From positions 1 through 32,835 of the forward strand of contig JAUYKD010000038.1 in the NCBI GenBank assembly GCA_030700195.1: a DNA stretch of 32,835 nt. The letters run 5' to 3'. Origin of the DNA: Candidatus Nealsonbacteria bacterium. GTDB lineage: Bacteria; Patescibacteriota; Minisyncoccia; Minisyncoccales; MHMH01. Numbering within the stretch: the first letter of the stretch is position 1; the number at the start of each line of letters is the position of its first letter. Below are positions 8,372 through 32,835 of the stretch, in pieces. A program made the translations under genes and the position numbers. The notes under the pieces are model-generated. The model was not told the DNA's origin. It was given only the letters and a program-made list of their open reading frames with translations, and ran no database searches.

Positions 8372-8442
8372 TCGGGCTGTGGGGGATCGAACCCCATTCA
8401 CAGGACCCCCAGCCCTGCATAATACCAATATACGACAGCCCG
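8372..8442 (-). tRNA. tRNA-Pro (anticodon GGG), CCA not encoded
   Basis: Hand-folded cloverleaf. Acceptor CGGGCTG/CAGCCCG. Anticodon stem CAGGG/TCCTG with loop CTGGGGG. T arm TGGGG-TTCGATC-CCCCA. Short 3-bp D stem with GG in the loop. 71 nt. Confidence 0.85.
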
Positions 8443-8452
8443 CGAATTATTT

Positions 8453-8546
8453 ACCGAGTCCCGCGTAGCGGCAATGAGATAAATCTCATTTTGAACTTCA
8501 CTGCAGTTCGTTGGTTGAAGGTAGAAGATGAGGTTCGCTCATCGCC
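8453..8546 (-). repeat. Family 2 bipartite hairpin element, two units, between rpmB and tRNA-Pro
   Basis: Read on the minus strand: GGCGATGAGcgaaCCTCATCTTCTACCTTC...then...GCCGCTACGCGGGACTCGGTAAATAATT. The first hairpin contains the rpmB stop codon. Confidence 0.7.
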
Positions 8547-8730
8547 TTCTTTTACTCATTGCCTTGATGCATTTGGTGCAGGCCTTGATCCGTTTACCGG
8601 ACGACAAACGCACCCATTGGAGATTCGGGTGTTTTCTTGTTTTAACGGTTGGATTGTATTTTCCTCTTAGTTTTTTTAGTTTCCAAACCATTCTGCCTTT
8701 TTTGTCGCAAATTGCGCATTGTCTGCTCAT
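8539..8730 (-). CDS. rpmB: 50S ribosomal protein L28
   Basis: MSRQCAICDKKGRMV...PNLQWVRL...CTKCIK is the classic L28 pattern. Started at the second Met (8730) of the track ORF. Confidence 0.85.
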   Translation of the reverse strand: MSRQCAICDKKGRMVWKLKKLRGKYNPTVKTRKHPNLQWVRLSSGKRIKACTKCIKAMSKRRR

Positions 8731-29418: not shown

Positions 29419-29922
29419 ATGGAAGATATTATAAGCGGTCATTTCTACAATCCGACCAAAGGCAACCTTACTTTTGACGAAGTTATTAAAGAAATCTTCG
29501 GTTACATAGCTCAAGATAAGGAGAAGTTCTACGACATTGTCGTTGGGTGCGATTCTTCTTCGGGAGAGGAGCCGACCTTTCCGGTTGTTATAGTCGCCTT
29601 GAGAAAAGGCGGAGGAGGAAGGTTTTTCCTTAAAAGAATAAAATATTCTTCAGACAGGAAGTTTTACAATTGGAAAGAAAGAATTTTGAATGAGGTTTAT
29701 CTTTCCTGCCAGATGGCTCTTATTTTGAAAGAAAAAATAGCCGGCCTTAAAACAAATTTTCTTAACTATGAGTTTCGTTATATTCATGCTGATGTGGGGG
29801 AGAACGGAGCTACCAAAGACATGGTTAAAGAAGTAACCGGCCTTATCCGGGGCAATGGATTTGAGCCAAAGATTAAGCCAGAATCCTATGTTGCTTCGGT
29901 AGTGGCAGACAGATATGCCTAA
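29419..29922 (+). CDS. YkuK/DUF458-like RNase H-fold protein
   Basis: FYNPTKGNLTFDEVIKEI...VVGCDSS...VVIVALRKGGGGRFF pattern recalled from the YkuK family. Tentative. Confidence 0.5.
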   Translation: MEDIISGHFYNPTKGNLTFDEVIKEIFGYIAQDKEKFYDIVVGCDSSSGEEPTFPVVIVALRKGGGGRFFLKRIKYSSDRKFYNWKERILNEVYLSCQMALILKEKIAGLKTNFLNYEFRYIHADVGENGATKDMVKEVTGLIRGNGFEPKIKPESYVASVVADRYA

Positions 29923-31030
29923 AAAGATAATTGTTGCTATGTCGGGAGGGGTTGATTCCTCTGTGGCAGCTGCCCTGCTCAAGAAGCAGGGGTTTGTTGT
30001 TATCGGGGTTTTTATGAAGTTTTGGCTTGCCCGCCGAAGCCCTGGCGAAGGCGGGAAAGCTTTTAACAGGTGCTGCTCTTCTGACGCAGAAAGAAGAGCG
30101 AGAGAAGTTGCTTCAATTCTTGATATTCCTTTTTATGTTTTTAATTTTGAAAAAGAGTTTAAAAAGAGAGTGGTTGATTATTTTTTGAAAGAGTATGCTG
30201 CGGGCCGCACTCCCAATCCTTGCGTTGTTTGCAATAAAGACATTAAATTCGGTCTTTTGCTGGAACGAACTTTATCTCTCAAAGCTGATTTCATCGCTAC
30301 GGGCCATTATGTTCGCAAAGCAGGCAATAAATTATTCAAAGGAAAAGATAAAGAAAAAGACCAGAGTTATTTTTTATGGCAGCTTTCTCAAAAACAGCTG
30401 AAACATTCTTTGTTTCCGTTGGGCTCTTATACTAAGAAACAAGTAAAAGAGATGGCCAAGAAGTTTGGCTTGCCGGTTTTATCAATTCCTGAATCCCAGG
30501 AAATTTGTTTTGTTGAAAATACTATTGGCGAGTTTTTAACAAAATACATAAAACAGAAAAAAGGTGAAATAGTTGATGCTCAAGGAAAAGTTTTAGGTGA
30601 GCATCAGGGTTTAAGCTTATATACTATCGGCCAGAGAAGGGGATTAGGTTTTATTGGTGGCCCCGCCTTCGCTAAACCCGCCTGCCGGCGAGGCAGGGCT
30701 TCGGCGGGCAAGCCTTATTGGGTGTTGAGAAAGGATTTGAAAATGAATGTTTTGGTTATAACCAAGGACGAAGAAGATTTATTTGAAAAAGAATTATTTT
30801 TCAAAGAAGCCAATTGGATTTCTGGAAAATCTCCTAAGGTTCCAGCAATTCTTAAAGCGACAATCAGATACCGGCATAAAGTTGTTCAAGGAGTTTTGCA
30901 AAAAGGCAACAGGTTTATTTTTAACAAGCCTCAAAGAGCCATAACTCCGGGCCAATCAATAGTTTTTTACCTGCCTCGCCGGCAGGCAGGTAAAGGCCAG
31001 GAACTTTTAGGCGGAGGCATCATCCGGTAG
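29915..31030 (+). CDS. mnmA: tRNA 2-thiouridine(34) synthase MnmA, with three in-frame GC-rich palindromic inserts
   Basis: PP-loop MSGGVDSSVAA, GRTPNPCVVCNKDIKF, ATGHY, KDQSYFL. Confidence 0.9.
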   Translation: MPKKIIVAMSGGVDSSVAAALLKKQGFVVIGVFMKFWLARRSPGEGGKAFNRCCSSDAERRAREVASILDIPFYVFNFEKEFKKRVVDYFLKEYAAGRTPNPCVVCNKDIKFGLLLERTLSLKADFIATGHYVRKAGNKLFKGKDKEKDQSYFLWQLSQKQLKHSLFPLGSYTKKQVKEMAKKFGLPVLSIPESQEICFVENTIGEFLTKYIKQKKGEIVDAQGKVLGEHQGLSLYTIGQRRGLGFIGGPAFAKPACRRGRASAGKPYWVLRKDLKMNVLVITKDEEDLFEKELFFKEANWISGKSPKVPAILKATIRYRHKVVQGVLQKGNRFIFNKPQRAITPGQSIVFYLPRRQAGKGQELLGGGIIR

Positions 31031-31047
31031 AATGTACCTGAAAACCC

Positions 31048-31076
31048 TTGACAAATCTGACGTGATATGGTATAAT
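31048..31076 (+). promoter_or_regulatory. Consensus sigma70 promoter
   Basis: TTGACA (31048-31053), exactly 17 nt spacer, TATAAT (31071-31076). Confidence 0.6.
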
Positions 31077-31183
31077 GCTGACATAGAAGAGAGATAAAGA
31101 ATATTAGAAAATTACGGGCGGTTCTCTCTTCTTAGAGTAGAACCGCCCTTTACATTAAAAATTTTTTAGAAAGGAGAGCTAAA

Positions 31184-31279
31184 GTGGAGTATAATAGTAC
31201 CGATAAATACGGTTGCACTCATTTCGGGAAAACTCCCGAAGAGGCGGCAGCAAATGCTGCCCTGGCTAATCGCGAATAA
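31184..31279 (+). CDS. Candidate 31-aa micro-ORF
   Basis: GTG 7 nt after AAAGGAG. MEYNSTDKYGCTHFGKTPEEAAANAALANRE. Sits between a structured leader and a 62-nt hairpin. Confidence 0.3.
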   Translation: MEYNSTDKYGCTHFGKTPEEAAANAALANRE

Positions 31280-31424
31280 GCCGGGCAGTCGAAGAGGGAA
31301 TTTAGTGAAAGATGAAGATGTCGTATTAATCTTATTTCATTTTTTCACTAAATTCCCCAATCCCTCAAGTTCAAGATAAATATCGTGAATTTAAGGGATT
31401 AGAAAAAGGAGATAAAAGATAAAA

Positions 31425-31760: not shown

Positions 31761-32048
31761 TCCGGTCGCATTTAAGGGGACCATATCGTTCAAATCGATT
31801 TAGTCCCCGCCAATCATCAGCTTGGAATTATAAATTCTTGGTTGATGAGTGGAATAGTTCTTTGATAAATCTTTCATACCGGCGAAGTGGTTACAATTAG
31901 ACATATATATTATGCAGATTAGACGTTATTCGTGTTAATCAGGTAGATTGTAGCCAGTTCGCCGGTATTGAAATAAAAAAAAGAGAAGGAAAGAAAAATT
32001 CTACTCGTTATGAGTAGACATAGTAAGTAGAAAGAAGGAGGTGCTGTT

Positions 32049-32480: not shown

Positions 32481-32540
32481 CCGGAGGCGCTTTCCGCTTA
32501 TAAATCTCTCTTCAGAGCGGGGAGCACCTCTGGCTTTTTT
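32481..32540 (+). terminator. Strong rho-independent terminator
   Basis: CCGGAGGCGCTTTCCGCT / AGCGGGGAGCACCTCTGG (18 positions, 1 mismatch, some GU), followed by CTTTTTTATTT. Confidence 0.65.
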
Positions 32541-32607
32541 ATTTGAATGAGGTTGGACTTCAATCAATTTGCTTAAAGGGTTTTAGTTAGATATAATAAA
32601 AACATTG

Positions 32608-32835
32608 ATGACTTCTAATATCAAGTTTTTGCGAAACAAAAACGCAGATAAAGATGAAGGGAAACTCCAAGGGAGGCAAACTTCATCGTTAGAACTAAGG
32701 CAGGAATTTTTGAAATTCTTTGAGAAAAAAGGACACAAAATAGTGCCTTCCAGTTCGCTTTTGCCGCAAGACCCTTCGGTTTTATTCACCACCGCCGGTA
32801 TGCAGCAGTTTAAAGAGTATTTCTTGGGTAAAAAG
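32608..32835 (+). CDS. alaS: Alanine--tRNA ligase, N-terminal fragment (continues past window)
   Basis: Hand translation ...[47 protein letters not shown] is the AlaS N-terminal signature. The frame is open to the window end. ATG 32608 is the first start after an in-frame TAG. Confidence 0.85.

Follow-up and report, generated by a model that had tools for sequence, protein, structure and literature searches.

The window (the whole stretch of DNA analysed, 32,835 nt) is contig 38 of the genome of an ultra-small, Patescibacteria-type bacterium, which comprises 564 kb in 58 contigs and is 93% complete. All long ORFs of the window were on the + strand. The gene mnmA (29915–31030), with a Pfam match to tRNA_Me_trans, lay directly upstream of a short leader, and alaS started at 32605, 1.4 kb downstream of this leader. 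The interval between the two genes held three ORFs of 31, 111 and 97 codons, each with a strong Shine-Dalgarno site, for which Pfam and PHROGs gave nothing significant. The features recognized in the first part of the interval were the following:

31048–31076, + strand: sigma-70-type promoter, with the −35 TTGACA at 31048–31053, a 17-nt spacer and the TATAAT at 31071–31076 (12/12 match)
31086–31095, + strand: GA-rich purine tract at the predicted 5' end of the transcript, "a", forming the first strand of an antiterminator-like helix, perfect 10-bp complement of 31123–31132
31096–31115, + strand: A/U-rich spacer, which varies in length among genomes (from alignments)
31116–31148, + strand: GC-rich terminator-like hairpin, with its 5' arm at 31116–31125 and its 3' arm at 31139–31148
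31123–31132, + strand: CU-rich segment, "a prime", in the upper 5' arm of the hairpin, the strand common to both competing pairings
31149–31167, + strand: U/A-rich tail 3' of the hairpin, with three U and an interruption, followed by a run of A and a run of T
31170–31279, + strand: Shine-Dalgarno AAAGGAG (31170–31176) and a 31-codon microprotein gene from GTG 31184 to the stop at 31277–31279 (from homology and codon bias)
31296–31357, + strand: 62-nt hairpin, folding as predicted, with a Shine-Dalgarno-like purine run at the head of its 5' arm and a pyrimidine run at the end of its 3' arm

The promoter had been described as rare-looking in an earlier note on this DNA, and it was the sole 12/12 site in the 12.8 kb scanned, as well as the best site there. 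A TG at 31068–31069 gave it an extended −10. The whole 564-kb genome had 12 perfect sites with spacers of 16–18 nt, three of them combining a 17-nt spacer with the TG. Several of the other perfect promoters preceded apparent non-coding RNA genes (by eye). On contig C18 (~8436–8560), for example, a perfect consensus promoter was followed by an RNase P RNA-like GGAAAGUCC-type block (by eye). This block suggests that perfect promoters in the source genome may mark highly expressed RNAs. A near-consensus −35/−10 pair was found at a fixed distance upstream in 21 of 29 homologous leaders, so that the GA tract begins within a few bases of the predicted start. From the promoter spacing, the transcript likely starts near 31083.

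Downstream of the promoter, two pairings share one strand. The tract at 31086–31095 and the segment at 31123–31132, which the earlier note had proposed as partners, formed a perfect 10-bp duplex of −15.1 kcal/mol, not reached by any of 500 shuffles of the 5' tract. The note's second hairpin (31116–31148, followed by TTT) was present as well, and was the dominant fold of the finished leader (−25.2 kcal/mol centroid). The stretch 31083–31370 folded with a z of −6.7. In the nascent RNA (54–62 nt), the minimum-energy fold was the 31086–31095/31123–31132 pairing until the 3' arm was made, and this was true in three genera. The minimum-energy fold of the entire leader was the alternative helix, and not the hairpin, in three other genomes of the family. 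The 5' tract paired poorly with its own spacer (−5.2 kcal/mol) or its own tail (−4.2 kcal/mol).

The leader unit, as recognized in relatives, consists of a near-consensus promoter, a 5' GA tract, an AU-rich spacer, a GC-rich hairpin whose 5' arm is rich in C and U, and a tail rich in U and A. By a promoter scan of the alaS upstream regions of the 19 genomes of the window's family we recovered seven leaders, and a covariance model added an eighth, so that the unit was found, in single copy, in eight of the 19. This first model also gave single matches in other families of the order. A second covariance model, built from 18 sequences, detected the leader in 23 of the 151 sampled genomes of the order, with one copy each and spread over ~20 families. 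In other orders of the class, a covariance search of ~145 genomes gave no leader at E ≤ 0.001.

In 40 relatives, blastn matched only the promoter and two short blocks. G004, from another genus, shared the promoter, the first 13 nt of the tail, the Shine-Dalgarno site and the GTG start, and its hairpin differed in the bases of the upper stem. In G009, from a third genus, the order mnmA, leader, micro-ORF and alaS was syntenic, with a more diverged leader. Of 401 genomes of the order, only G000 and G004 contained the exact hairpin-plus-tail pattern. The exact promoter pattern gave 11 matches over all GTDB species, mostly by chance, in Firmicutes, and the pattern of tail plus Shine-Dalgarno gave a single chance match in metagenome contigs. 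The earlier note had suggested comparing the leader with Rfam. There was no match in Rfam 15 at the gathering score, with only chance microRNA-type matches at E ≤ 10, and ten homologous loci gave no match at E ≤ 0.01. A literature search did not find a description of it. The motif is thus an undescribed, order-wide, single-copy leader RNA.

The hairpin had the clearest covariation. In an alignment of 29 sequences, which was fitted to the structure of the covariance model and hence somewhat favours the hairpin, nine of the 12 pairs changed on both sides, 91.3% of the cells were paired, and the covariation score was 0.444, compared with 0.226 in shuffles (0 of 500 reached it). Slid controls of the same alignment had 40–54% pairing. 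G-U pairs were common in the stems and A-C mismatches rare, indicating that the constraint acts on the + strand RNA. The stems were strong over the leaders, with a mean of −20 kcal/mol and loops of 3–5 nt.

In the 29 leaders there was a mean of 5.2 U in the 10 nt 3' of the stem, versus ~3 expected from composition. The tail in the window had only three U before the interruption, and was thus weaker than a canonical terminator tract. A consensus terminator scan did not call the hairpin at 31116–31148. With such a weak U-tract, the hairpin may not terminate at all.

The competing pairing was kept throughout. All 29 leaders had a homologous GA tract in the corresponding position, and in each of them the alternative helix could form, with 8–14 bp and −12.6 to −22 kcal/mol. 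Cognate partners had a mean of −16.3 kcal/mol, versus −14.8 for non-cognate ones (permutation p = 6e-5, with genome kinship ignored). When the leaders were cut before the 3' arm and aligned with MAFFT without structure, the alternative helix was the only consensus structure returned by RNAalifold. The core, GAGAG with CUCUC, was invariant over the leaders, and therefore carries little covariation, less than the hairpin does. The score of the helix was reached by nine of 500 shuffles and its double changes by four of 500, i.e., the shuffles were moderately exceeded. The tract being a dinucleotide repeat, a slide of the alignment by two columns still paired 63–70% of the cells. Changes were found at the margins of the core. 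The outer pair alternated between A-U (9), G-C (9) and G-U (6), and lineage-specific flank changes matched each other, with a UCA flank pairing with UGA in part of the window's family. Both strands had changed together in G004 and G043. Invariance of the CU strand would be expected if this segment has to pair with two partners.

Most order-level members had the CU tract wholly within a perfect stem of 12–14 bp with a loop of 3–5 nt, and the two pairings therefore cannot coexist. For the same reason, a full pseudoknot with both helices at once was judged unlikely. The layout described in the earlier note, that of an antiterminator/terminator with mutually exclusive pairings, was thus recovered in the relatives: the hairpin covaries, the competing pairing is kept in all 29 homologous leaders, and cognate strands fit each other best. 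Between the two strands, RNAalifold detected no consensus structure; an AU-rich block was conserved there, with an optional small hairpin in some families.

Behind the hairpin, the elements AAAGGAG, 7 nt and GTG, followed by an ORF of 31 codons, were located as the earlier note had placed them. The micro-ORF shared 55% identity with an ORF of 32 codons that follows the leader of G062, from another family, and a similar long form was found in G069. A short form of 22–29 codons, starting with M-A-Y-Y-V, followed the leader in G009, G006, G080 and G078, and in G001 and G015 the short form stood behind a bare promoter. A profile search placed the microprotein family in nine genomes of five families (E 1e-7 to 1e-15). 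Differences among four short-form genes fell on codon positions 1, 2 and 3 in the numbers 34, 25 and 71, with 5–9 synonymous codon changes per pair. Pfam, PHROG and the ESM Atlas had no usable match for the micro-ORF. Conservation in relatives, which the earlier note had proposed as a check, is therefore answered by homologues and by a third-position bias. Judging from both, the 31-codon ORF is a real conserved microprotein gene, and no leader peptide.

The same leader was also followed by unrelated small ORFs in other genomes, which shows that leader and cargo are separable. This separability makes it probable that the leader responds to a general signal, and not to the product of one gene. 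Within 100–200 nt 3' of the hairpin, G083 (L061) and G040 (L082) had a different small ORF of 27–34 codons, beginning from the hairpin tail. Its middle and C-terminal stretch were conserved across two families, and a second family of microproteins or a conserved RNA may be present here. In G080 (L062, ~1890–1965), and also in L064 and L083, a conserved, imperfect long hairpin with a GC-rich start was found between the leader and the short-form micro-ORF. Rfam had no match for this long hairpin in these three genomes of other families.

Several further structures were recognized between the micro-ORF and alaS. The 62-nt hairpin at 31296–31357, also noted earlier, was present, in single copy in the genome, and a hairpin was seen at the same position 3' of the micro-ORF in G009, G006 and G001 (by eye). 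Right behind it there was a second hairpin, with arms at 31359–31372 and 31387–31400, and the Shine-Dalgarno site of the 111-codon ORF followed just 3' of these. This second hairpin was kept in G009 and G006, with apparent compensatory changes in the middle of the stem (by eye, blastn). Upstream of the 97-codon ORF, a long hairpin (31876–31968) had ~80% identity over 108 nt to the stretch at the same position in G001 (L011/L004). G006 had a related long hairpin, and the arms of the window's copy were single copy in the genome. The stretch 32484–32618 held a terminator-like hairpin with a proper U run and then a promoter-like site just before alaS, and was 70% identical over 139 nt in G009. From this arrangement, the hairpin probably ends the small-gene unit, and alaS probably has its own promoter.

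The gene content around the leader varied. In G014 and G010 (L031 and L036), the cargo 3' of the promoter was an ORF of 103–106 codons with a ParB/sulfiredoxin-like DGRHR motif and a second ORF of 153–155 codons with a HAD-like N-terminus (both by eye). With such cargo, the island 5' of alaS looks like a hotspot with variable content. In other families than the window's own, the leader and the island of small genes were often found just 5' of a gene for a KH-domain protein and trmD, instead of alaS (loci L060, L064, L066, L081 and L087), indicating that the unit moves between housekeeping neighbourhoods.

We read the unit as a cis-acting, attenuator-type 5' leader of an mRNA, for which we infer the start site, the termination and the switching, and we give this reading about an even chance of being right. 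In such a model, the hairpin would most likely be a conditional or partial terminator. Transcription would begin at a very strong promoter, about three bases before the GA-rich tract. In the growing RNA, the 5' tract would pair with the CU-rich upper 5' arm of the next hairpin, giving an "open" form. After synthesis of the 3' arm, the GC-rich hairpin, being the more stable, could displace the 5' pairing, giving a "closed", terminator-like form with a U/A-rich tail. The form that wins would set the amount of RNA polymerase, or the number of ribosomes, that gets through to the microprotein gene and on to the small genes beyond it. Candidate triggers are a protein, a 30S subunit on the Shine-Dalgarno-like 5' tract, nucleotide levels and the speed of transcription. 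The order of the elements, with the promoter at 31048–31076, the hairpin at 31116–31148 and the start codon at 31184, was the same in homologues. In the window's family, the first start codon lies 25–40 nt 3' of the hairpin with no promoter in between, so that some read-through is required. Among the three options in the earlier note (a cis-regulatory leader, a small RNA or a leader-peptide system), the cis-regulatory leader fits best, with pairings conserved in relatives.

The same elements could instead serve the stability or translation of the mRNA. The 5' pairing and the hairpin would then shield a strongly expressed mRNA against 5'-dependent RNases, or adjust the access of ribosomes, with no stop of RNA polymerase, and would resemble the 5' stem-loop stabilisers and the Shine-Dalgarno-like "STAB-SD" elements of Gram-positive bacteria. 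Such a role would suit a helix that begins ~1–3 nt from the predicted 5' end, a 5' tract that is Shine-Dalgarno-like (containing GGAG) in most order-level members, a weak U-tract and a first gene that needs read-through. However, the finished RNA of the window's genome leaves the 5' tract unpaired: the stable hairpin frees it, so that the end would be unprotected at equilibrium. A simple stabiliser would also not need the conserved three-way competition between 5' tract, CU arm and 3' arm, and the tails were enriched in U over the expectation. We consider this explanation unlikely. A small RNA gene seems to us distinctly unlikely. It would give an abundant RNA of ~70–85 nt, whose single-stranded GA-rich 5' end would act in trans on CU-rich targets or on the anti-Shine-Dalgarno of the 16S rRNA, with read-through being secondary. 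Against it stand the Shine-Dalgarno and start codon that follow so closely in the window's family without a promoter of their own, the conserved partner in cis of the GA tract and the weak terminator tail; for it, the single copy and order-wide conservation of the unit, the apparent non-coding RNAs behind other perfect promoters of the genome, such as the RNase P RNA-like one on contig 18, and a next credible ORF that is >200 nt away in several families.

An effect at the DNA level, or chance, is highly improbable. The GA tract would then be an initially transcribed sequence that aids promoter escape, in line with its invariant core, and the inverted repeat an operator or a selfish REP/MITE-type palindrome. 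But the stems keep their pairing via G-U and rarely have A-C, which points to RNA from one strand, and changes in the flanks of the GA tract are accompanied by changes in those of the CU tract. The hairpin arms were single copy in the 564-kb genome and the motif was single copy per genome. A mobile hairpin of the REP/MITE type was likewise rejected, with one significant copy per genome and unique arms. The leader-peptide option of the earlier note did not hold, as the micro-ORF lies 3' of the hairpin and is a conserved coding gene, and the leader also stands before unrelated genes. Neither a leader peptide nor a leaderless peptide was apparent further upstream, where no start codon or frame was conserved between the start site and the hairpin and the AUG, CUG and UUG frames differed among genomes. 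A T-box leader was considered for alaS and rejected: there was no T-box match at E ≤ 10, the leader is only ~100 nt, and alaS, 1.4 kb away, has its own promoter-like site and is set apart from the leader by three ORFs and a conserved terminator-like hairpin.

The attenuator-type reading can be extended further. The leader might belong to a new regulatory RNA class of one Patescibacteria order, which senses a global signal via its 5' end and gates a strongly promoted, fast-evolving island of microproteins. Free 30S subunits on the Shine-Dalgarno-like GA tract could convey such a signal, or a dedicated protein or small molecule binding there. We hold this wider reading tentatively and think it rather unlikely. 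If it were true, the island, including its conserved protein of 25–32 residues, may matter for the episymbiotic lifestyle.

To our knowledge, gene regulation in the candidate phyla radiation is almost entirely unexplored, with very few regulatory RNAs on record. Although the organisms are uncultured, the leader is tractable for in vitro transcription and structure probing, since it is small, single copy, strongly promoted, present in ~20 families and built on two defined competing helices. The small genes at the locus that it marks change rapidly and lie beside housekeeping genes (alaS or the khpA-trmD block), and work on the leader reveals a conserved microprotein family that gene callers have overlooked.

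Three kinds of known leaders can be compared with this unit. Transcriptional ON riboswitches of the adenine pbuE/ydhL type open with the 5' strand of an outer helix, whose 3' strand also serves as the first arm of the terminator, so that expression is turned on when the outer helix is stabilised. The window's leader has the same layout of strands, but differs in having no structured ligand pocket, Rfam family or association with a metabolic gene. A riboswitch of an Rfam class was rejected, with no aptamer match and no structured core between the strands (RNAalifold). Protein-dependent attenuators, such as trp/TRAP, pyr/PyrR and the bgl-sac/BglG type, are built on an intrinsic terminator. They share with the leader a terminator or terminator-like hairpin with a competing upstream pairing, the absence of a translated leader and a possible trans-acting factor. 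In contrast to them, no GAG/UAG triplet repeats at regular spacing, PyrR box or RAT were identified in the leader, and the genes behind it are variable small orphan ORFs.

By analogy, the closest mechanistic parallel is the pyrG attenuator of B. subtilis. The passage on it in PMC4448216 (with reference to Meng, Turnbough and Switzer 2004) presents the pyrG leader as a CTP-sensitive reiterative transcription attenuator, in which termination is prevented when a purine run at the extreme 5' end base-pairs with the pyrimidine-rich first arm of an intrinsic terminator. As given there, the purine run consists of extra, non-templated G residues that are added when CTP is low. A pyrG-type reiterative attenuator in the strict sense was rejected for the window: the CU-rich arm is present, but the transcript would not begin with a G run, and small orphan ORFs lie downstream. 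Set against that passage, the leader further differs in that its GA tract is encoded in the DNA and no genes of nucleotide metabolism stand behind it. What the two have in common, as far as the passage describes pyrG, is a short leader without an aptamer, in which purines at the 5' end are matched against the CU-rich arm of a terminator or terminator-like hairpin.
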